DNA from: Deltaproteobacteria bacterium
GTDB taxonomy: Bacteria > JAGRBM01 > JAHCIT01
Assembly (NCBI GenBank): GCA_026129095.1
Contig: JAHCIT010000013.1
Coordinates: 1-64,000, forward strand
DNA length: 64,000 nucleotides
Reading direction: 5' to 3'
Numbering within the stretch: position 1 is the stretch's first letter; the number at the start of each line of letters is the position of its first letter. The position numbers and the translations under genes were made by a program. The notes beneath the pieces are model-generated. The model saw only the letters and a list, made by a program, of their open reading frames with translations. It did no database searches and had not been told where the DNA came from. Of the stretch, positions 54,690 to 63,930 are shown piece by piece.

Positions 54690-54835
54690 TACCTGTGAGC
54701 TTGGCCAATCGGGCACAGAGGCTCAAGGGCCGCAAACACCCTGTTCCTATGCCATGTCTGCCCGGCTTGCCTCATTTAGACCGTGCGGTAGGGTTTGGCT
54801 GGGGAAACGGAAGCGGGCAGGAGGTTGATGCAGAC

Positions 54836-56062
54836 ATGGCGAAGAAGGCTCAGGGCAGCACGAAGAAGACCACGGCAAAAAGCAGTTCCCGCACGGCGGC
54901 ATCGTCAAGGCGGGTGGCGTCCGGCGTCCCTGCCGAAACACCCATCGACAGGCGGCTTGCGCTGGTGAATGGAGCGGGTGGTTTTCTGGGACTTAATGTG
55001 GTGCGGGAGCTGGTCCGCCAGGGCTGGCATGTGCGGGCAAGTGACCTGCCGCAGGTCAGAATCGACCATCTCTCCCGTGATTTCGGCGTGGAAACGCAGC
55101 CGGCGGACCTTTTGGACCTTGAGCAGTGCCGTGCACTCGTGAATGGAGTCACCCACGTCTTCAATCTCGCGGGACTGTTCAACTTCGCCGCCAGCCGTGA
55201 GCAGCTTTTCAATGCCAACGTGAAGGCAACCGAAATGATGTGCCGTGCCGCTTCCGGGACAAAACTGGAGCGTTTCGTGCATGTGGCGACCATCGGTGTC
55301 TATGGAAGAATGGGCCGCCGCGCAGCGGATGAGAGCTGGCCGCACCGGCCGAAGAATCCCTATGAGGCGACCAAGGAACAGGGAGAGGCTGTGGCGTTTC
55401 ACTATGCACGCACCCGCGGACTCCCGGTGGTATCGCTCCGGCCGACCGTGATCTATGGGCCGCGTTCCCGCTACGGCGTTGTCACGTTCCTGTCGGCTAT
55501 TGCCATGCTGCGGTTTTTCGGCATCCGGAAGGCTCCGGCTATCCCTGGAGGGCCGAAACTCTCACATGTGCACGTCGAGGATGTCGCCCGCGCGCTGGTG
55601 CATATTGCCACCCATGGCAAGGTGGGCGAGGCCTACAACTGCGCCGACGATACCCCGCAGGCGTGGGGTGATCTGGCCACTTTCATGGCTGGCGAGTTCG
55701 GCATCGAACCGGCTGATGAATACCATGTACCGGACCCGGTTTTTCACCTGCTGGGCCGGGTGGCGCCATACGTGCCGAAATCATGGCTTGCCGGCCGGCA
55801 GAAGCAGATTGACCAGCAGTGGCAGAAGCTGGTGGAAGCCGGCGTGAAGGATTTCCTGAAACCCACGCTCGACATGGATTTTCTTGGTTACCTCCGGTCG
55901 AACCATATCCTCGACACCGGGAAGCTGAAGAACACCGGCTTCAGGTTGAACTATCCGCGCACGGTCGATGGCCTGCGTCAGACGATCGAGTGGTACCGGG
56001 AGGCGGGCTGGCTGCCGAGGCTGGACCAGTTCCACCAGTCCGGCAGCCGGGCTACGGCCTGA
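54836..56062 (+). CDS. NAD-dependent epimerase/dehydratase (extended SDR, 3-beta-HSD-like)
   Basis: GAGGFLG, YEATK (YxxxK), LRP..IYGP and HVEDVA. Confidence 0.85.
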   Translation: MAKKAQGSTKKTTAKSSSRTAASSRRVASGVPAETPIDRRLALVNGAGGFLGLNVVRELVRQGWHVRASDLPQVRIDHLSRDFGVETQPADLLDLEQCRALVNGVTHVFNLAGLFNFAASREQLFNANVKATEMMCRAASGTKLERFVHVATIGVYGRMGRRAADESWPHRPKNPYEATKEQGEAVAFHYARTRGLPVVSLRPTVIYGPRSRYGVVTFLSAIAMLRFFGIRKAPAIPGGPKLSHVHVEDVARALVHIATHGKVGEAYNCADDTPQAWGDLATFMAGEFGIEPADEYHVPDPVFHLLGRVAPYVPKSWLAGRQKQIDQQWQKLVEAGVKDFLKPTLDMDFLGYLRSNHILDTGKLKNTGFRLNYPRTVDGLRQTIEWYREAGWLPRLDQFHQSGSRATA

Positions 56063-56073
56063 CACCTGCACGA

Positions 56074-56460
56074 ATGAAAACCGACACGGTATTCGTGGAC
56101 GCCACGCGCGTGGTGACGGATGCGGGCCGCATCTCGCTGTTTTTGTGGGTGGATGTCATGCGCGGAGACGGTGGTGAGGTGCTGACCGGCGAGCCGGCGA
56201 GGCTATGGGTCGAGCTGGAATGGGAAAAGACCGGTGGCGAGGCGGAATCTCTCCGAATGTACGAGGAGGCAGTTCCTGCCGAGTGGCTCACCGGTTCCGC
56301 GCCTGACCGGAGGCTCAAGGCCAGAGTCCGGGCGCTGTTCGAGGAAGGCCGGGACCGGATGTACGCCGTGGGTGCCGGCGGGACGATGGCATGGGCCCGT
56401 GACTGGATGAAGTCGGGCCGGCCGGCCGGGAAAACTCCTAGTTCAGGAACGGCAGAATAG
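56074..56460 (+). CDS. Hypothetical protein
   Basis: ATG 11 nt after the upstream stop (MKTDTVFVDATRVV...); fills the gap; no recognisable family. Confidence 0.45.
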   Translation: MKTDTVFVDATRVVTDAGRISLFLWVDVMRGDGGEVLTGEPARLWVELEWEKTGGEAESLRMYEEAVPAEWLTGSAPDRRLKARVRALFEEGRDRMYAVGAGGTMAWARDWMKSGRPAGKTPSSGTAE

Positions 56461-57664
56461 GCATGCCGGTCTTGGGATCAGTATCGAGCAGGACGGCTTC
56501 CAGATAGAAAACGAGATCCAGCCAGTAGAACAGGCAGTAGGCTCCTGCCACCAGGAACAGGATGAAGCTGGGCCAGAAAACGGCCTTGCCGCAGGGTTTT
56601 GCAGCGGCTCCGGGCCATATCCAGTTGCCGATGAAGACCCCAATCGCCGTCATCAGGTAGCTGGCAATGACGAGCCGGGGCTCGCGGCCCGAGATGTTGA
56701 CCATGGACTCGACATCTCCGGTACCGAAGGTAAGCCAAGCGGTGACACCGAAAAGGATGGCGAAAAGCGGCAGCAGCCAGAGCGCCGTTGAACCGGCAGA
56801 ACGCGCCAGTTCCTTCCACGGGGCGGGGGCCGGAGCGAGCCAAACCAGCGTAATGGCGGAGAGCGCGAGCAGCAGGAACGATCCCAGCAGTGCCTGATAG
56901 CGGGCGACGTAGAGATGGGCTTTCACCCGCTGGGCGGGGCTGGGGGGCGGGACGCCCAGTTTTTCGCCAAGCGCGGTAGCAGCATCATAGTAGGCGGCCG
57001 ACTGGGAGTAGCGGTTTCGCGTAAACTCCAGATCGCCCAGACCTTTCAGTGCAAACGCCGCCGACAGGGTGCCGGGATAACGGTCAAACACCATCCGGTA
57101 CAAACGGCGTGAATCATCGAAACGGTTCTGACGGAACGCATTCTTGGCAAGGAAAAAGAGATATTCGGGCGAACGCGGATAGCCGGGATTGGCCTCGGTA
57201 AGCCTGAGCATTTCCTGCTCGAATGCTTCCTCACCGATGTCCTTCCGGGTGTCGAGGAGTTTCTGGAACTCCTTGTAGGTTGCCGCCCATTTACCCTCGA
57301 ACGGAAGCAGTGAGGGGAGCCGCCGCTCCACGCGGGCCGCTGCACGGCTGTCATGATAGCGGGAGACGACCAGCCGGTATATTTCGAGTGCGCCGTCCAC
57401 ATCGTGAAGTTGCTGGTCACGGATGAAACCACACTGAAACAGCGCGCTCGGCGCTGACGGGCTGGCGGGGTATTTGTTCGCCACTTCCAGATAGATCCGG
57501 CAGGCTTCATCGAGATTCCCCGCCGTCTCAGCCTTCTGGCCCTCGACGAACAGGATCTCGCCAGGTTCCTCCGGCGCAGATGCCTCGCCGGTAGCAAGTA
57601 CGGCCAGAGGCATCAGGCCGCAACCATATGCAGCAACCAGAAGGAGACCCCGCCAGCGGGCCAC
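56438..57664 (-). CDS. TPR-repeat (BamD/CpoB-like) exported domain followed by about four C-terminal TM helices
   Basis: N-terminal signal; repeats such as YLEVANKYPASPSAPSALF and YRMVFDRYPGT..A..AL..LG; hydrophobic C-terminal third; starts 2 nt after the upstream stop. Confidence 0.75.
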   Translation of the reverse strand: MARWRGLLLVAAYGCGLMPLAVLATGEASAPEEPGEILFVEGQKAETAGNLDEACRIYLEVANKYPASPSAPSALFQCGFIRDQQLHDVDGALEIYRLVVSRYHDSRAAARVERRLPSLLPFEGKWAATYKEFQKLLDTRKDIGEEAFEQEMLRLTEANPGYPRSPEYLFFLAKNAFRQNRFDDSRRLYRMVFDRYPGTLSAAFALKGLGDLEFTRNRYSQSAAYYDAATALGEKLGVPPPSPAQRVKAHLYVARYQALLGSFLLLALSAITLVWLAPAPAPWKELARSAGSTALWLLPLFAILFGVTAWLTFGTGDVESMVNISGREPRLVIASYLMTAIGVFIGNWIWPGAAAKPCGKAVFWPSFILFLVAGAYCLFYWLDLVFYLEAVLLDTDPKTGMPILPFLN

Positions 57665-57666
57665 GG

Positions 57667-58737
57667 CTATTTCTTTCCTGCCGGCCTGACGGGCGGTGTC
57701 GTAACCGCCGGTGCGGTGCCGATCTGTTGCACTTCCATCCGGACGCGGTGCTGTGTGTCATAGGTATAGTGGTGCGGTGCAGGGATGGTCAGAACGCCGT
57801 TATAGTAGAGTTCAGCCTTGAGAGGGACCGAAAGTTCACGATCAATCCAGATTGTGCCCTCATAGTTTCGCACCGTGATGCCGGGGTTTTCTCCGGTATA
57901 GTGAGAGGGGCCCGTCTTGTACTGGTCTACGGTCCTGCCCAGCCATTCTCCCACCCCTGCGAGCTCGTAGCCGATGGCCTGCCGGGTTTCGTTGACCCAC
58001 CGGCGGAGAAGGTCATGGGAAAGCAGATCGAGTTGCCCTGAAGTGATGGAATTCAGAAGCTGCTGGTCTTCCTCAGGTGACTGCTCGTTGATGTCAGCGG
58101 CCTGCTTGTCGCCAGGCCGCTGAAGGAGCGGCCGGTTCCCGATCAGCCAGAACTGGCTCTTGTAAAGCGGCTTGTGGAAGGTCTGGGCGGGACTATCGGT
58201 ATCGACGTTGTAACTGGCGTGCCAGTCTCCGTTCGAAGCCTTGGTGAAACGCACGGCACCCTTGCTGTATACCTTGCCCAGCTTCGGCTCCGAACTTTTC
58301 ATCTCGAAACTGAAATCGACCACGAAGGACGGCAGGTTGTCGAAAGTCCGCCGGAACGGCTGGTTAACGGCAGCGATGACCGACGACAATGTTTCGGGAA
58401 GCTTCTCAGGGACTTCTTCTTCCTGCCGGCGTCCCTGGTGCATGGTCATCGGTTCGAGTGTCACGCCCTGCATCTCGGGCTCCACCTCACCCTCTGCATA
58501 GAGCTGCCCGGATTCCATGCGCTGTTCTTCCACCCATGCACGGGCCTTCTTGACGTGGTCCACTTCCGCACCCCGTTGCGGTGGTGCCGACGGGATGAGG
58601 CCATCCGGAAGTTCCGAACGGGTAGTGAGGTACAGAAGATAAATGCTGACCACGACCGCAATGGCCAGCGCCGCCATGACAAAGCGGCGAACATTGTCCG
58701 CTTTCGGGACTGGTGGACTGGATGGAGGCTCAGTCAC
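57667..58737 (-). CDS. Single-pass membrane protein with beta-rich periplasmic domain (LolA/LppX-like by motif)
   Basis: GTG start overlapping the upstream TGA (GTGA); TM FVMAALAIAVVVSIYLLYL; G.GEWLGR.V..Y and EGTIWID...VPLKAE. Confidence 0.6.
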   Translation of the reverse strand: MTEPPSSPPVPKADNVRRFVMAALAIAVVVSIYLLYLTTRSELPDGLIPSAPPQRGAEVDHVKKARAWVEEQRMESGQLYAEGEVEPEMQGVTLEPMTMHQGRRQEEEVPEKLPETLSSVIAAVNQPFRRTFDNLPSFVVDFSFEMKSSEPKLGKVYSKGAVRFTKASNGDWHASYNVDTDSPAQTFHKPLYKSQFWLIGNRPLLQRPGDKQAADINEQSPEEDQQLLNSITSGQLDLLSHDLLRRWVNETRQAIGYELAGVGEWLGRTVDQYKTGPSHYTGENPGITVRNYEGTIWIDRELSVPLKAELYYNGVLTIPAPHHYTYDTQHRVRMEVQQIGTAPAVTTPPVRPAGKK

Positions 58738-58973
58738 GATGCCGCTTCCGTCCCGGACTGGCCCGGCATGGGCTCGCCGTGGCCTGGTTTCACACGGCTT
58801 CGCAGGTAAGCCGAGATGACCGGTATCGCTACCATGAGAAAACCCGAAAAGATCACAAGCGGTGTGAGATCGGCACCGATCGAAGACGAGTTCGGGTTGT
58901 AGCCGAACTTCACTTCGAGCACCCGTCCGCGCCGCCGTTTCCACGGCAGTATCCATTTGCTCCAGAACGACAT
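58734..58973 (-). CDS. 79-aa membrane micro-protein with GYNPNSSS motif (candidate radical SAM substrate)
   Basis: SD GGAG upstream of ATG 58973; basic KRRRGR, KFGYNPNSSSIG and one TM helix; stop overlaps the next start. Confidence 0.65.
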   Translation of the reverse strand: MSFWSKWILPWKRRRGRVLEVKFGYNPNSSSIGADLTPLVIFSGFLMVAIPVISAYLRSRVKPGHGEPMPGQSGTEAAS

Positions 58974-59147
58974 CCTGCAAGTCTCCGGTCGTTATCCAGC
59001 AGTCGAAGCTCCACCATAGCACCGGCGCGGCTGGCGCGGGAAGGGGAGATTATCCCGGACACCCTTCGCCATTATTGTCCAGTTAATGAGTTCTCGCCGT
59101 TACAGGGCAGATTGGATATATTTGGCTGAACAGGGCAGCATTTCCGG

Positions 59148-60341
59148 ATGGATACCAAGGCGGGCTGGCGATACCGGTACGAGCCGTTCGGCGGGATTAT
59201 CTCCGTCGAGGAGCCGCCGCTCCTCATGCTGGTGGACCAGGACTACCTGCGCGAGCGGGGCGTGGCGGAAAGCCCGGCGTGGAGTGAGCCCTGGGACGGC
59301 CAGCTTTCGGCGCCGACAGAAGTGCATCTGGCGCTCACCAACTATTGCGCTGCCGGCTGCACGGCTTGCTACATGGACTCGCGGCCGACTGACCGGCTGG
59401 AGACCGAACGGAAGGATTATGAACTGGCCCTGGGCCGGATCCGTACTCTGGCTGGAATGGGTGTATTCCATGTGGCGCTGGGCGGCGGAGAGACGCTGGA
59501 AGTGCCGTGGCTGTTTGATCTCGCCGCCGAGATGAGAAAGCTCGGCATGGTACCGAACATCACGACGAGTGGCCTGGGCATGACGGAGGAGAAAGCCCGC
59601 CGTTGCCGGATATTCGGGCAGGTGAACGTGTCGGTGGATGATCTGGGCGAGCGTTACCGCGAAAGCCGCGGATACCAGGGGTTCGAGGCGGCTGAGAAAG
59701 CAATCGGCTTGCTGCAAAGAGAGGGCATCCCGGTTGGCATCAACTGCGTCATCTCCCGCAAGAACATCGGCCACCTGGATGAGATATTCGCCTGGGTGAA
59801 GCGGAATAAACTTCTGGAGATCGAGCTGCTGCGCTTCAAGCCGGCGGGACGTGGCGCCGAACACTATGGGGAGTTCTGCCTCACGGCGGAGCAGGCGGAA
59901 AACTTCTTCCCGCAGGTAAAAACACTCACGCGCAAGCACCGGATCCGGGTAAAACTCGACTGCTCGTTCGGGCCGTTCGTCTACTTCCACAAGCCAGACC
60001 GGGAGACCGTGCGGTTTTTCTCCATCCGGGGCTGCGAGGGGGGCAACTGGCTCGCCGCCGTCCACCCCGATGGCCGGGCGGCCCCATGCAGTTTCGCCTG
60101 GGATGAAAGTGTTCCGGTGGCTGATCTGCCCTCGAAATGGAAAGACCCGTCGGCCTTTGCCAACTTCAAGGCATGGTGGACAAACCCGCCTGAGCCCTGC
60201 GCCTCGTGCGACTATCTGGACCTTTGCCATGGTGGATGCCATGCGGTGTCGAAACACACGAACGGCAGTTTCCAGGCACTCGATCCCGAGTGTCCTTCGG
60301 TGCGGCGCTACCGGGCGGGACTGGAGGGGAAGCAGGGATGA
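59148..60341 (+). CDS. Radical SAM/SPASM domain protein
   Basis: CAAGCTAC (CxxxCxxC), LGGGE, NITTSG; SPASM GCEGG...HPDG..PC, CASCDYLDLCHGGC and DPECP. Confidence 0.95.
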   Translation: MDTKAGWRYRYEPFGGIISVEEPPLLMLVDQDYLRERGVAESPAWSEPWDGQLSAPTEVHLALTNYCAAGCTACYMDSRPTDRLETERKDYELALGRIRTLAGMGVFHVALGGGETLEVPWLFDLAAEMRKLGMVPNITTSGLGMTEEKARRCRIFGQVNVSVDDLGERYRESRGYQGFEAAEKAIGLLQREGIPVGINCVISRKNIGHLDEIFAWVKRNKLLEIELLRFKPAGRGAEHYGEFCLTAEQAENFFPQVKTLTRKHRIRVKLDCSFGPFVYFHKPDRETVRFFSIRGCEGGNWLAAVHPDGRAAPCSFAWDESVPVADLPSKWKDPSAFANFKAWWTNPPEPCASCDYLDLCHGGCHAVSKHTNGSFQALDPECPSVRRYRAGLEGKQG

Positions 60342-60814
60342 GCCAGATTGTTTTTGAATCGTCGGCGCGTCTGCTCACGCTGCTGCACGGTCTTGCCGGA
60401 ATCGCGCTTACTGGCGCACTTACCCACGGGGCGGTTTTCATCTGGAAAGGAAACCGCACCGGGGCGGCGGGCTACTACCGGCGGGCGGAGAAGTTCTGGC
60501 CCGTCATTCACATATCGCTCTTTGCTTCCATGCTGCTGGGGTTCATTGCCTACCCGACCTACCGGATCCGTACCCGCGCCGAGTTCCTCGACGCCCACTA
60601 TCCGCTGGTGGTGGACCTGTTCGATCTCAAGGAAAACTACGCCTCGATCGTTTTCGTGCTGGTGTTCGGGGCCTGGCTCCTCCGTCACGCACCGCTCAAA
60701 AGCCAGGCGCGGCAGCTTCTGCACGACAACTTCTACTACGCGGCCACGGCCCTTACCTGGCTTATTGCCGTGCTGGGGCTATGGGTGACGCTGCACCGGG
60801 GGATCGGTACATGA
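60338..60814 (+). CDS. Small four-TM membrane protein of unknown function
   Basis: ATGA overlap with the rSAM stop; LLHG...LTHG in TM1, loop YPTYRIRTR..FLD...P...LFDLKEN. Confidence 0.75.
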   Translation: MSQIVFESSARLLTLLHGLAGIALTGALTHGAVFIWKGNRTGAAGYYRRAEKFWPVIHISLFASMLLGFIAYPTYRIRTRAEFLDAHYPLVVDLFDLKENYASIVFVLVFGAWLLRHAPLKSQARQLLHDNFYYAATALTWLIAVLGLWVTLHRGIGT

Positions 60815-61185
60815 GTGAAGCTCCAGAAAACAGTACGAAAGGCACCGGCGTGGCTGCTGCCGCGATTCTGGTGAGCACCTTTGGGCTCATGTTCGCGCTT
60901 CTGGCGATTCTTCCTGTCAAGGTGCCCGCCTACATCCCGCTGGAACACCGCTGGCAGTGGGGGATGCCCGATCCTCCGCTCATCGGGATGGACTACTACG
61001 GCCGGACCATCGTCGCGCTGGTTGTGGCGGTCGTCGCTTCCGGCATCGCCTGGATCATCGCCGGTCCCGTTGCCAGATGGAAACCGGCTGAAAACTCCCA
61101 GGGGGTGAAGATGCTCGCTATCTACGCCTTCACAGGGACGGCGCTGTCGGTGTTCATCTACTGCTATACGCTCGTATTCAAGTGA
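60811..61185 (+). CDS. Small three-TM membrane protein of unknown function
   Basis: ATGA overlap with the upstream stop; loop YIPLEHRWQW...MDYYGR between TMs. Confidence 0.7.
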   Translation: MSEAPENSTKGTGVAAAAILVSTFGLMFALLAILPVKVPAYIPLEHRWQWGMPDPPLIGMDYYGRTIVALVVAVVASGIAWIIAGPVARWKPAENSQGVKMLAIYAFTGTALSVFIYCYTLVFK

Positions 61186-61303
61186 TCTGTGCCGGGAGTC
61201 TTGCTCCCCATTGACTCTCCGGTCGATTTTGGCTCGACTGGCCGTTCCGGGTGGAGCATTGTGGCCCCCGGCTATCTCCAGGGGAGTTCAAAGGTAACAG
61301 CAT

Positions 61304-62716
61304 ATGGTCGGCATCATGGCATACGGGGCATATGTCCCCTTTCACCGGCTCCAGCGCAAGGCGCTCAACGAGGCCCACGGCAAGCCGGGAGGCAAGGGCG
61401 AGCGGTCGGTTGCCAACTACGACGAGGATTCGGTTTCGATGGCGGTTGAGGCCGCCTGGAATGCCTTGTGGAAATACGACACGAAGCAGGTGGGGACAGT
61501 CTATCTCGGCACGACGACGAATCCGTACGCCGAAAAGGCTTCCAGCACGACTATTGCCGCCGCCCTCGACATGCCACCGCAGGTCCGCACGGCCGATTTC
61601 GGTGATTCGCTCAGGGCGGGTTCGAGTGCCCTGCTGGCGGCGCTGGATGCGGCAGTCTCGACGGGTAAGCCCGCACTGGCGCTGGCCGGGGACTGCCGGA
61701 TCGGCGGAGCCGGTGGCGGCAACGAAAGCAGTTTCGGTGACGGGGCGGCCGCGTTCCTGTTCGGAACAGGGGATCTTGTGGCGCGGGTGCTGGCGACGGC
61801 CAGTGTTGCCAACGAGATCGTGGACAACTTCCGCCGCCATGAGGACGTGATGGTCCGCAACTGGGAAGAGCGGTTCGGCATTGTCCAGGGTGTGAACCGG
61901 GCCATACCTGCAGCGGTGAAGCAGGCGCTCCAGCAGGCGGGTCTCAAAGGGGAGCAGGTGGACCGGTTCGTCTGCGCCTCGCCTTCGAGCAAGGCAACGC
62001 AGGCCGTGGCCAAGATGTGCGGCATCAGGCCGGAAGCCATCGAGGATGCGCTGGAAGCCACGGTCGGCCAGGCAGGCGCCGCCCACGGACCGATGATGCT
62101 CACCGGGGCACTGGAAAAGGCGAAAGCCGGCGACAAAATCCTTTTCGTATCTTATGCCGAAGGAGCCGATGCGCTGCTCTTGGAGGCGACACCGGGCATT
62201 GACGCCTGGCGCCCCAAGCGGCACCTCTCTGACCTTATTGAACGCAAGCGGAACGACATCCGCTACACGGACTACCTCAGGTGGCGGAATCTGCTTGATT
62301 TCGAGCCGCCCCGCCGCCCGGAAATGAAGCGTCCGGCAGCAACTGCCATGTTCCGGAACTATCACCAGAACCTCGGCCTCTACGGAAGCCGCTGCACGGC
62401 TTGCGGAGCATTGAGCTACCCCAAGCAGCGTGTCTGCTGGAAGTGCCGTGCCAAGGACAAGACCACCGACTACTCGTTCCGTACGGCCAAGGGAAAGATA
62501 CGGACATTTTCGGCCGACCATTTGGCCTACACACCTGCGCCGCCGGAACTGCTGGTGGTGATCGATTTTGAGGAAGGGGGACGGCTCATGTGCAACATGG
62601 CCGACGTTGACCTCAAGAACGTCAAGGTTGGCGAGCCGGTCGAGATGACCTTCCGCCGGCTCTATGAAGCGGGTGGAATTTTCAACTACGCATGGAAAGC
62701 GAAGGCGGCGGGCTGA
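61304..62716 (+). CDS. HMG-CoA synthase-like domain fused to DUF35 Zn-ribbon/OB-fold
   Basis: GI.AYGAYVP..R, ERSVA.YDEDS..MAVEAA, GDGAAA; C-terminal CTACG..YP...CWKC and VKVG.PVEMTFRR. Confidence 0.88.
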   Translation: MVGIMAYGAYVPFHRLQRKALNEAHGKPGGKGERSVANYDEDSVSMAVEAAWNALWKYDTKQVGTVYLGTTTNPYAEKASSTTIAAALDMPPQVRTADFGDSLRAGSSALLAALDAAVSTGKPALALAGDCRIGGAGGGNESSFGDGAAAFLFGTGDLVARVLATASVANEIVDNFRRHEDVMVRNWEERFGIVQGVNRAIPAAVKQALQQAGLKGEQVDRFVCASPSSKATQAVAKMCGIRPEAIEDALEATVGQAGAAHGPMMLTGALEKAKAGDKILFVSYAEGADALLLEATPGIDAWRPKRHLSDLIERKRNDIRYTDYLRWRNLLDFEPPRRPEMKRPAATAMFRNYHQNLGLYGSRCTACGALSYPKQRVCWKCRAKDKTTDYSFRTAKGKIRTFSADHLAYTPAPPELLVVIDFEEGGRLMCNMADVDLKNVKVGEPVEMTFRRLYEAGGIFNYAWKAKAAG

Positions 62717-62748
62717 TCCAGCCTTCCTCTTAAGGGGAGTACGAAATC

Positions 62749-63930
62749 ATGGCAGGAACCATCAAGGACCGTGTGGCAGTCGTCGGCATGGGATGTTCGA
62801 AGTTCGGCGAACGCTGGGAATCCAGCGTTGAGGACCTGCTCGTCGAGGCAGCCTACGAAGCCTATGAATCGGCTGGCATAGACCCCAAGCAGCTCGAAGC
62901 GGCATGGTTTGGCACCATGAACTCCGGCCGGGCAGCCCTGCCGCTGTCGCAGTCGCTGAAGCTCGACTACATCCCGATTACCCGCGTCGAGAACATGTGC
63001 GCTACCGGCAGCGAGGCCTTCCGGAATGCCTGTTATGCGGTCGCTTCTGGTGCCTATGACCTGGTGATGGCGATCGGTGTCGAGAAGCTGAAGGATTCCG
63101 GCTATTCCGGTCTCACGTCAGCCATGCCCGATTCCGACGGTACCGAGCCGAACCTCTCGGCTCCATCGGCCTTTGCGCTGCTGGCCCCGGCCTATGCGGC
63201 CAAATATGGCGTCAGTACCGAGAAGATGAAGGAGGTACTTTCGCGCATTGCCATGAAGAACCACGCCAACGGGGCGCTCAATCCCAAGGCGCAGTTCCAG
63301 AAGGCAGTCTCGATGGACGAGTGCCTGAAGTCACCCACGGTGGCGAGCCCGCTGGGCATTTTCGACTGCTCGGGGGTCGCCGACGGGGCCGCTGCCGCGA
63401 TCATCTGCCGGGCCGAGGATGCCCACAAGTACAACAAGAAGCCGATGTACGTGAAGGCACTCACCATTGCCGCCGGGACGGGGGAGGGTGCACTCAACCC
63501 GGACTTCGACTTCACCATGATCAATGAGAACGTCCGCGCCGCGAAGGAAGCCTACCGGCAGGCGGGCATCACAGACCCGGCGAAGCAGATCTCCATGGCC
63601 GAAGTCCATGACTGCTTCACGCCGACCGAGCTCGTTATCTACGAAGACCTCGGTTTCACCGCTCGCGGGCAGGGCTGGAAAGACGTTCTGGACGGCGCGT
63701 TCGAACTGGGCGGCCGTTTGCCCGTGAACCCCGACGGCGGCTTGAAAAGTTTCGGTCACCCCATCGGTGCGTCCGGCCTCAGGATGCTCTACGAATGCTG
63801 GCTCCAGTTCCGCGGTGAGGCGGGAAAACGCCAGCTTCCCGACCCCAGGCTGGCTGTCACCCACAACCTGGGCGGCCAGCCTTGGCGTTGCGTCGCCTTC
63901 GTCAGTGTCGTCGGCAAAGAGGCCGGGTGA
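62749..63930 (+). CDS. Thiolase-family acetyl-CoA acetyltransferase (SCP2/archaeal type)
   Basis: VENMCATG, DCS...DGAAA, AEVHDCF, VNPDGGL, GHPIGASG and HNLGG. Confidence 0.92.
   Translation: MAGTIKDRVAVVGMGCSKFGERWESSVEDLLVEAAYEAYESAGIDPKQLEAAWFGTMNSGRAALPLSQSLKLDYIPITRVENMCATGSEAFRNACYAVASGAYDLVMAIGVEKLKDSGYSGLTSAMPDSDGTEPNLSAPSAFALLAPAYAAKYGVSTEKMKEVLSRIAMKNHANGALNPKAQFQKAVSMDECLKSPTVASPLGIFDCSGVADGAAAAIICRAEDAHKYNKKPMYVKALTIAAGTGEGALNPDFDFTMINENVRAAKEAYRQAGITDPAKQISMAEVHDCFTPTELVIYEDLGFTARGQGWKDVLDGAFELGGRLPVNPDGGLKSFGHPIGASGLRMLYECWLQFRGEAGKRQLPDPRLAVTHNLGGQPWRCVAFVSVVGKEAG

Follow-up and report, generated by a model that had tools for sequence, protein, structure and literature searches.

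A two-gene core system is described here in which a radical S-adenosylmethionine (rSAM) enzyme with a SPASM domain probably modifies the NPNSSS loop of a membrane-tethered micro-protein. It was found in a 64,000-nucleotide stretch of DNA (the window) from a Deltaproteobacteria bacterium (contig JAHCIT010000013.1 of assembly GCA_026129095.1), in a region where an initial annotation had proposed a six-gene membrane cassette; the conserved unit is the enzyme/micro-protein pair and not the six-gene set. That the two proteins form a true functional pair is supported by the adjacency of their genes in 73 of 80 related loci, by their strict co-presence and co-absence in 248 genomes, and by a predicted complex that scored 0.92 where the best control scored 0.00. 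The features of the pair are as follows.

58734..58973, minus strand: micro-protein (P0002, 79 amino acids (aa)), with a basic N-terminal strand, a G-x-NPNSSS-x-G loop, one transmembrane (TM) helix and a variable tail
58881..58898, minus strand: codons of the NPNSSS loop, N26-P27-N28-S29-S30-S31 (sequence and family conservation)
58803..58859, minus strand: TM helix of the micro-protein, residues 39-57 (hydropathy 2.3)
58974..59147, no strand: divergent intergenic region of 174 bp between the micro-protein gene and the rSAM gene
59148..60341, plus strand: radical SAM/SPASM enzyme (P0001, 397 aa), of a large unnamed family
59160..59285, plus strand: N-terminal mini-domain of P0001, residues 5-46, predicted as three strands and short helices (model, predicted contacts and conservation)
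59346..59369, plus strand: CxxxCxxC radical-SAM cluster motif, C67/C71/C74 (invariant in 20/20 aligned sequences)
60033..60293, plus strand: SPASM domain of P0001, residues 296-382 (TIGR04085 match and alignment)

Conservation of the enzyme/micro-protein pair

Relatives of the enzyme were found at 404 loci in a scan of one genome per species, and by the labels in the record titles, which are used for all loci here, the family spans Myxococcota, Planctomycetota, Nitrospirota, Geobacter relatives, Acidobacteriota and others; among the loci is a cultured carrier, Geomesophilobacter sediminis Red875 (L033). Neighbourhoods were counted in the best 80 of the 404 loci, with flanks of up to 7 kb. A micro-protein gene lies within 7 kb of the enzyme gene in 73 of the 80, as judged by tblastn, by clustering of open reading frames (ORFs) and by searching for the NPNSS motif in six frames. 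The motif occurs on the enzyme's strand in 75 of 78 instances, and for 58 of the 78 its first base lies 119-300 nt ahead of the enzyme start; in these 58 the micro-protein gene directly precedes the enzyme gene, often overlapping it. The three occurrences on the opposite strand are those of the window's two relatives and of one Gammaproteobacteria metagenome-assembled genome (MAG). The divergent arrangement on which the initial annotation was built is thus real at this locus, but it is a local rearrangement and not the norm of the family.

The gene is missing from seven of the 80 loci, four of which have less than 300 nt of sequence upstream of the enzyme, and a profile search of the seven for a divergent micro-protein gave only a chance match (E 1.8). 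Five genomes without an adjoining micro-protein gene were searched as a whole, and four carry it elsewhere, sometimes beside a gene for a tetratricopeptide-repeat protein with several TM helices (TPR+TM). At two such distant sites (L097 in G041 and L099 in G042) the micro-protein gene directly follows the TPR+TM gene and the 1.5 kb around it hold no rSAM gene, so the link between TPR+TM and micro-protein genes can outlast that between micro-protein and rSAM genes. Two micro-protein genes are present in 5 of the 80 loci; the paralogous NPNSSS genes of these loci (L032, L052, L065, L080 and L086, several of them Planctomycetota-type) are in most cases each adjoined by a TPR+TM gene.

Co-occurrence was assessed in 248 genomes from three lineages, namely the class of G047 (121 genomes), the order of G046 (121) and the window's own order (6), with counts that include related, non-independent genomes. 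Both genes are present in thirteen genomes and absent from 235, and in no genome does either occur alone, so that for the rSAM and micro-protein genes the association of the two arms suggested by the initial annotation is borne out. In the class of G047, both genes are found in 8 of 121 genomes, always side by side, and neither in the other 113; in the order of G046, one of 121 carries both and 120 carry neither at ortholog grade; in the window's own order, both are present in G000, G001, G004 and G005 and neither in G002 (95% complete) or G003 (83% complete). Such a scattered occurrence, in which the two genes are nonetheless always found together or not at all, is what one would expect if an obligate pair moved by horizontal transfer.

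Within its order, G046 is the only genome in which a strong micro-protein match is joined by an enzyme of ortholog grade, which scores 521 bits and aligns from profile position 7. Three weak micro-protein matches in the same order (E 7.5e-5 to 3.4e-4) were rejected as chance because they cover the TM part only (positions 20-59) and come from genomes without an ortholog-grade enzyme. SPASM paralogues were also seen in 54 of the 121 genomes of this order; they score 145-179 bits against the enzyme profile, starting near profile position 50, and lack the N-terminal mini-domain that the predicted complex uses to hold the micro-protein. No strong micro-protein match was found in these 54 paralogue-only genomes.

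The micro-protein itself belongs to a sizeable family. A profile search of 1.84 billion representatives returned 593 matches at E <=0.001 (363 at E <=1e-10), each a representative at 50% identity, and the best 150 are all 51-146 aa long with no fused forms among them. Motif statistics were drawn from 148 of these 150, the window's protein and P0008 being excluded as they were already in the query alignment. NPNSS is present in 147 of the 148, the sole exception reading NANSSS. Among the 147 carriers, the glycine at -2 and the N, P, N, S and S of the motif are each found in 147, the third serine in 146, and the flanking glycines at +7 and -10 in 143 and 138, respectively. The basic strand ahead of the loop is also well kept, with I or V at -8 in 147, L at -7 in 143 and K or R at -4 in 138. 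The initial annotation had defined the motif as GYNPNSSS, which is present at residues 24-31 of the window's protein; its NPNSSS part is conserved, but the tyrosine is variable, being found in only 78 of 147 with L, M, V, C or F in the others.

A median of 22 residues, and a minimum of 12, stand ahead of the motif, and the 15 residues that precede it carry a mean net charge of +4.2 in the 147 carriers. The motif is followed by the TM helix and a variable tail, which in many Myxococcales-type members amounts to only a few residues, and these members are therefore tail-anchored. The loop would sit at the cytoplasmic face of the membrane, as suggested by the positive-inside rule and by the cytoplasmic location in which an enzyme dependent on Fe-S clusters and SAM works. 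None of 37 family members had a meaningful match to any NCBIfam model.

The enzyme and its predicted complex with the micro-protein

P0001 is a member of the rSAM superfamily (46.9 bits to Radical_SAM, PF04055, cut-off 29.5) and of the SPASM subfamily (41.3 bits to TIGR04085, cut-off 27, over residues 296-382). C67, C71 and C74 are invariant in all 20 aligned sequences, as are the SPASM-region cysteines C296, C314, C351, C354, C360, C364 and C382, along with C272 upstream of them. The enzyme scores 103.6 bits with the MftC model (TIGR03962, cut-off 265), 91.3 bits with PqqE (TIGR02109, cut-off 381.35), 88.8 bits with the rSAM enzyme of the GeoRSP system (TIGR04303, cut-off 400) and 32.2 bits with anSME (TIGR03942, cut-off 349.45), whose sulfatase motif differs, and is a member of none of them. 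An NCBIfam search had been proposed with the initial annotation; in it the enzyme matched no equivalog at cut-off, and by these profile comparisons it belongs to no named NCBIfam equivalog family. Together with the scans of micro-protein family members, this agrees with the earlier statement that the locus could be matched to no named cassette. No MftA/MftB-type or PqqD-like gene was seen among the recurrent neighbours of the related loci.

The protein search for enzyme relatives gave 1721 matches at E <=0.001. Among the best 120, more than 110 are full-length, with 44-51% identity and E values of 1e-122 to 1e-109, and these come from MAGs labelled Myxococcales, Planctomycetota, Deltaproteobacteria and Bdellovibrionota. 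By sequence, the closest solved structure is PqqE (6c8v; E 3e-28, nearly full length), followed by SkfB, anSME, SuiB and CteB. A similar picture is obtained from the AlphaFold2 model built on the 20-sequence alignment, which has a mean predicted local distance difference test (pLDDT) value of 92.9 and a predicted template-modelling score (pTM) of 0.90: its ten top Foldseek matches are chains of SuiB, SkfB, PqqE, anSME and CteB (query TM-score 0.57-0.72), TigE is also among its best structural matches, and ChlB, a peptide maturase, stands at rank 22. The small-molecule rSAM enzymes GDGT-MAS, the viperins, BlsE and DesII reach TM-scores of at most 0.50.

The N-terminal mini-domain is modelled with strands at residues 7-12, 15-20 and 25-30, and R10, E12, G15, G16, I17, P23, L26 and V29 are conserved or invariant in the alignment. 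Co-folding of enzyme and micro-protein, a check also proposed with the initial annotation, scored 0.92 three times out of three, whereas none of three controls exceeded 0.00, with a pLDDT of 71-73 for the partner and at least 92% of contacts common between runs. In calibration, the mark used was reached by 116 of 157 solved complexes and by 2 of 215 mismatched pairs, a calibration that holds roughly here as our own alignments were used as input.

The contacts of highest confidence are predicted between residues 17-23 of the micro-protein, that is its basic strand, and enzyme residues 25-33 and 290-292; residues 25-30 of this contact zone are the third strand of the mini-domain, which is thereby predicted to be the docking site of the strand. 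Micro-protein residues 14-40, loop included, are predicted to touch Y75 near the cluster motif, the GGGE stretch at 110-113, residues 137-139, 156-160, 197-199 and 226-231, and the SPASM region at 267-273, 283-304 and 314-316, so that the prediction lays the loop in the enzyme barrel. As modelled, the complex matches the recognition of a leader strand by a RiPP recognition element (RRE; RiPP, ribosomally synthesised and post-translationally modified peptide), here built into the enzyme, and such a built-in element would explain the absence of a PqqD gene.

Membrane partners and surroundings

The four further genes of the locus encode membrane or envelope proteins.

57667..58737, minus strand: single-pass protein (P0003, 356 aa), periplasmic, possibly of the LolA-superfamily fold; a lineage-specific add-on
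56438..57664, minus strand: TPR + 4TM protein (P0004, 408 aa), the accessory protein found most often with the pair
60338..60814, plus strand: 4TM protein (P0005, 158 aa), a recurrent accessory partner
60811..61185, plus strand: 3TM protein (P0006, 124 aa), a recurrent accessory partner

The gene layout given by the initial annotation was confirmed throughout: six ORFs in two arms diverge across the 174-bp gap, a GTGA overlap (58734-58737) joins the micro-protein and P0003 genes, 2 nt (57665-57666) separate the P0003 and P0004 genes, and ATGA overlaps join the rSAM and 4TM genes (60338-60341) and the 4TM and 3TM genes (60811-60814). Its TM counts also agree with Kyte-Doolittle hydropathy in 19-residue windows, by which one segment is called in the micro-protein (residues 39-57), one in P0003 (19-37), a signal-like N-terminal segment plus four in P0004, four in P0005 and three in P0006; two of these segments are weak, the first of P0005 (1.47) and the third of P0006 (1.56). 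The micro-protein, P0003, P0005 and P0006 of the window have no Pfam or NCBIfam match. No sigma-70-like promoter was found in 56200-61500, gap included, against 1.2 sites expected, a count that is little informative for this organism.

The pair is often, but not obligatorily, accompanied by the TPR+TM, 4TM and 3TM proteins. By profile, the TPR+TM family (three mutually detecting clusters) is present in 51-53 of the 80 loci; the 4TM protein is present in 27 by tblastn and in 35 by a first-pass profile, and the 3TM protein in 5 by tblastn and in 24-28 by profile. A count of 65 loci from an iterated 4TM profile was discarded as the profile had drifted. At least one of these membrane partners is present in 74 of the 80 loci. 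Where each flank offers at least 3 kb of sequence (50 loci), the counts are 47 for the micro-protein, 41 for TPR+TM, 18 for 4TM and 15 for 3TM. Of the six-gene cassette first proposed, then, the pair is conserved, but the LolA-like protein is found in 1 of 80 loci and the remaining genes come and go.

Gene order varies with lineage. The order phosphoesterase, TPR+TM, micro-protein, rSAM is seen in MAGs labelled Geobacter, Nitrospirota and Acidobacteria; micro-protein, rSAM, 4TM, 3TM and a small lineage-specific protein in Myxococcales MAGs; phosphoesterase, 4TM, 3TM, TPR+TM, micro-protein, rSAM in Archangium-type MAGs; and micro-protein, TPR+TM, rSAM and another small lineage-specific protein in Planctomycetota-type MAGs. 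The recurrent neighbour clusters comprise TPR+TM, 4TM, 3TM, a metallophosphoesterase and small unknown proteins. The metallophosphoesterase is secreted, resembles purple acid phosphatases, carries PKD domains and lies near the pair in 32 of the 80 loci (e.g. L090:3354-5168); no phosphoesterase gene of that kind stands next to the cassette in the searched part of the window.

P0004 matches the TPR models TPR_2 (33 bits, cut-off 27), TPR_6 (30.4, cut-off 26.3) and TPR_14 (26.4, cut-off 23.5). In the TM domain of the TPR protein, conservation of polar residues is nearly absent, and a catalytic role for it, such as that of an intramembrane protease, was rejected for this reason. Homology between this domain and the 4TM protein was likewise rejected (hhalign probability <1%). 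The 4TM protein forms a bundle of four helices, in which H17, H30 and a YP-YR...FD-KE loop are conserved; H17 and H30, both in TM1, are its only conserved histidines, and heme ligation by them may be considered a candidate function only. Its Atlas structure neighbours DUF4405, CopD, DUF2231 and DUF2269 (TM-score 0.6-0.66) serve as leads only.

P0003 is a lineage-specific add-on because tblastn finds it in 1 of 80 loci, the protein search yielded six relatives (none below 50% identity), and it stands beside the cassette only in the same-family genome G001. Within the window's order, it is only in G001 that the P0003 and TPR+TM genes lie beside the cassette; in G005 neither gene appears in 6.7 kb of sequence ahead of the pair, and the contig of G004 ends too close for a call. 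The initial annotation had called the protein LolA-like, and the fold matches lean that way: nearly all of its top Foldseek matches in the PDB are of the LolA superfamily (RseB, LolA, LprG, LprF and MucB, E 4e-7 to 1e-4), and its Atlas neighbours include LppX_LprAFG and DUF6612 (TM-score 0.45-0.50). However, the protein has no Pfam or NCBIfam match, and the query TM-scores are only 0.16-0.27, from a low-confidence model (pLDDT 52.8), so a LolA-superfamily fold is weakly supported.

Transcription of the genes is at most weakly hinted at by metatranscriptomes, as contigs from RNA libraries show neither strand nor level. In one of these (X13), seven contigs at least 99% alike cover parts of five of the six genes and the junctions 58734-58737 and 60811-60814; they reach only the last 17 bases of the micro-protein gene and not the divergent gap, and the uncovered stretches are not evidence of silence. 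In another library (X8) a 95-99% relative is represented by a contig that crosses the divergent gap, so DNA carry-over is possible. DNA near-identical to 56438-61185 (0.59-0.82 of sampled words) also occurs in soil metagenome runs of one study, besides the activated-sludge sample that is the probable source.

Two observations concern the neighbouring DNA. An ORF of 213 aa at 55819-56460 (plus strand), which has no Pfam family and overlaps the 3' end of a short-chain dehydrogenase/reductase (SDR)/epimerase gene (54695-56062) by ~240 nt, may not be a real gene. On the other side, 61304-63930 (plus strand) encodes a 470-aa protein, in which Pfam recognises a part like 3-ketoacyl-acyl-carrier-protein synthase III (KAS-III) or 3-hydroxy-3-methylglutaryl (HMG)-CoA synthase together with a ChsH2-type zinc ribbon and oligonucleotide/oligosaccharide-binding (OB) fold, followed by a thiolase-like protein (Thiolase_C_1); this gene pair presumably resembles the archaeal-type thiolase/HMG-CoA synthase/DUF35 arrangement.

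Proposed mechanism and comparison with known systems

In the proposed mechanism, a cytoplasmic rSAM/SPASM enzyme would recognise a small membrane-anchored protein whose N-terminus faces the cytoplasm. The mini-domain of the enzyme would pair with the basic strand G-[RK]-[IV]-L-x-[VI]-[KR], in place of a separate PqqD/RRE protein, and this pairing would place the G-x-N-P-N-S-S-S-x-G loop in the active-site barrel. A 5'-deoxyadenosyl radical would then abstract a hydrogen from the loop while two auxiliary clusters handle the electron, and the modified protein would stay tethered at the inner membrane face, as no protease or exporter accompanies the system. The tethered product would work with the facultative TPR+4TM, 4TM and 3TM proteins and, in this lineage, also with the LolA-like protein. 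Both the role of the loop as substrate and the topology are what we infer here. Candidate reactions are an oxidation of Ser C-beta of the anSME type, an epimerisation, or a cross-link within the loop (ether, C-C or C-N); to our knowledge, Ser C-beta oxidation as performed by anSME is the only known SPASM chemistry that fits the invariant residues of NPNSSS.

Several observations weigh against modification of the loop. Three loci with full 7-kb flanks still have no micro-protein gene nearby, and in one genome of 8.4 Mb (G043) the enzyme is present with no detectable micro-protein. The loop is without aromatic residues or cysteine, the usual targets of known SPASM cross-linkers. Of the 75 enzyme residues that are invariant, 34 fall within the predicted 93-residue interface (odds ratio 3.7, p = 2e-6); this enrichment counts in favour of the proposed mechanism, but it is partly expected as the SAM-binding residues of the barrel are conserved in every rSAM enzyme. 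The predicted complex supports binding and cannot tell a substrate from a stable subunit, and the LolA-like neighbour hints at lipid handling, which could point to a substrate that is not a peptide.

The main rival takes up these last points: the micro-protein would be a permanent membrane anchor or lid that recruits the enzyme to the inner face, the loop would be part of the active site, and the substrate would be a membrane lipid, an isoprenoid or a quinone. This is possible, if on the unlikely side, and is consistent with a tail-anchored micro-protein without a protease or exporter alongside, with recurrent partners that are all integral membrane proteins, and with a complex that would fit a stable assembly as well as it fits an enzyme with its substrate. 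The lineage-specific add-on P0003 may also be of a lipid-binding fold type, going by its top fold matches (LolA, LprG and RseB), and the membrane-lipid rSAM enzyme GDGT-MAS is among the structural matches of P0001. GDGT-MAS, however, stands only at rank 20, with a query TM-score of 0.47 and a sequence match of 34 bits, and all the listed structural matches ranked above it are, we take it, peptide or protein maturases. In addition, six consecutive invariant polar residues between glycines resemble a core peptide more than a lid, and substrates are known to be recognised by the docking of a leader-like strand on an RRE-like strand, as predicted here.

It is improbable that the system yields a secreted or released RiPP, with modification, cleavage and export of the N-terminal peptide and with the 4TM, 3TM and TPR proteins acting in export or immunity. 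The enzyme does fall in the fold group of RiPP maturases, and TMcin offers a recent precedent for a membrane-integrated RiPP precursor (PMC13252029). However, no peptidase, S2P-type protease or ATP-binding cassette (ABC) exporter was found among representative members of the recurrent neighbour clusters 0-44 of the 80 loci, which agrees with the initial annotation, where no PqqD/RRE gene, peptidase or ABC exporter had been seen; the peptidase and exporter that accompany the maturase in a classical secreted RiPP cluster are thus not among the recurrent neighbours. The TM domain of the TPR protein, almost devoid of conserved polar residues, also argues against such a role, as does the position of the modified part at the extreme N-terminus, with only 12-22 residues ahead of it, which would be cytoplasmic by the positive-inside rule.

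A small-molecule enzyme of the tetrapyrrole type with the small ORF as a coincidental or spurious neighbour can practically be dismissed, since the NirJ2, NirJ1, NirJ, AhbD and AhbC models do give 66.2-73.3 bits with P0001 but these scores are far under their cut-offs of 500-650 and under those of MftC and PqqE, which places the enzyme outside the heme d1/Ahb group, clustering with which the initial annotation had named as a refuting result, and since the small ORF is conserved in 593 representatives and strictly co-occurs with the enzyme.

If the enzyme does modify the loop, the product may go beyond a simple modification. It is speculative, and rather unlikely, that the loop becomes a peptide-derived prosthetic group or a cross-linked centre with a catalytic or redox function, which would remain tail-anchored on the cytoplasmic side and serve as the functional part of a TPR+4TM/4TM/3TM complex; were this true, it would be a membrane-bound counterpart of pyrroloquinoline quinone (PQQ) or mycofactocin, horizontally spread across more than 10 phyla. 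The action of rSAM/SPASM enzymes on ribosomal peptides has yielded new cofactors (PQQ and mycofactocin) and new cross-link chemistry. The loop here lacks the residue types of known SPASM cross-linkers, and the presumed substrate is tethered with no release machinery. Solving the reaction would probably uncover radical chemistry on Asn, Pro or Ser that is new, and probably also a new role for a modified membrane micro-protein. The question is directly testable, as Geomesophilobacter sediminis Red875 is a cultured carrier.

Neither the NPNSSS motif nor the pair was found in the open literature searched (subscription journals and preprint supplements lying outside it), in Pfam or in NCBIfam, so that no description of the pair was found in the searchable literature and these databases. 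Among membrane-associated systems, TMcin (TmcA) similarly has a precursor with a TM helix, whose processing by membrane proteins takes place at the membrane; it involves an S2P-clan protease, a DsbA-type oxidoreductase and secretion. That system is staphylococcal and plasmid-borne, and its product is an antimicrobial. In the text on TMcin neither 'radical' nor 'rSAM' occurs, and no rSAM enzyme takes part (PMC13252029).

The closest parallels in logic are PqqE/PqqA(/PqqD) and MftC/MftA(/MftB), in which an rSAM/SPASM enzyme is likewise encoded beside a very short protein with a small invariant core. PqqE and MftC are the best sequence matches of the enzyme, yet far below their family cut-offs. 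Unlike these systems, the pair has no separate PqqD/MftB chaperone, in whose place the N-terminal mini-domain of ~45 residues seems to act. The core here has no Glu/Tyr or C-terminal Val-Tyr, the peptide has a TM helix, and no downstream cofactor-processing enzymes recur.

In structure, the best match of the enzyme is SuiB of the streptide system SuiB/SuiA (5v1s; query TM-score 0.72, E 5e-16). The layout of an N-terminal recognition element, an rSAM barrel and a SPASM domain is common to SuiB, SkfB, CteB, ChlB and the enzyme here, and as in maturases bearing an RRE a leader-like strand is predicted to dock by strand pairing. The sequence identity to these SuiB-type maturases is 12-19%, however, and the recognition element is much shorter; neither Lys/Trp nor Cys occurs in the target loop, a protease and an exporter are lacking, and the product is probably retained in the membrane. 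The likeness to anSME/AtsB (structural match TM-score 0.59-0.63), which turns Ser or Cys of sulfatases into formylglycine, lies in the SPASM enzyme and in its oxidation of a Ser C-beta within a brief conserved motif of a protein; the motif here is not (C/S)-x-(P/A)-x-R, and no sulfatase is nearby.

By analogy, the system thus appears to work like a peptide-maturase pair of the PqqE/PqqA, MftC/MftA or SuiB/SuiA type without belonging to any of these. Its class of enzyme and its logic are those of known systems. What is new is the motif of the presumed substrate, its tethering to the membrane, a recognition domain built into the enzyme and the set of partners.

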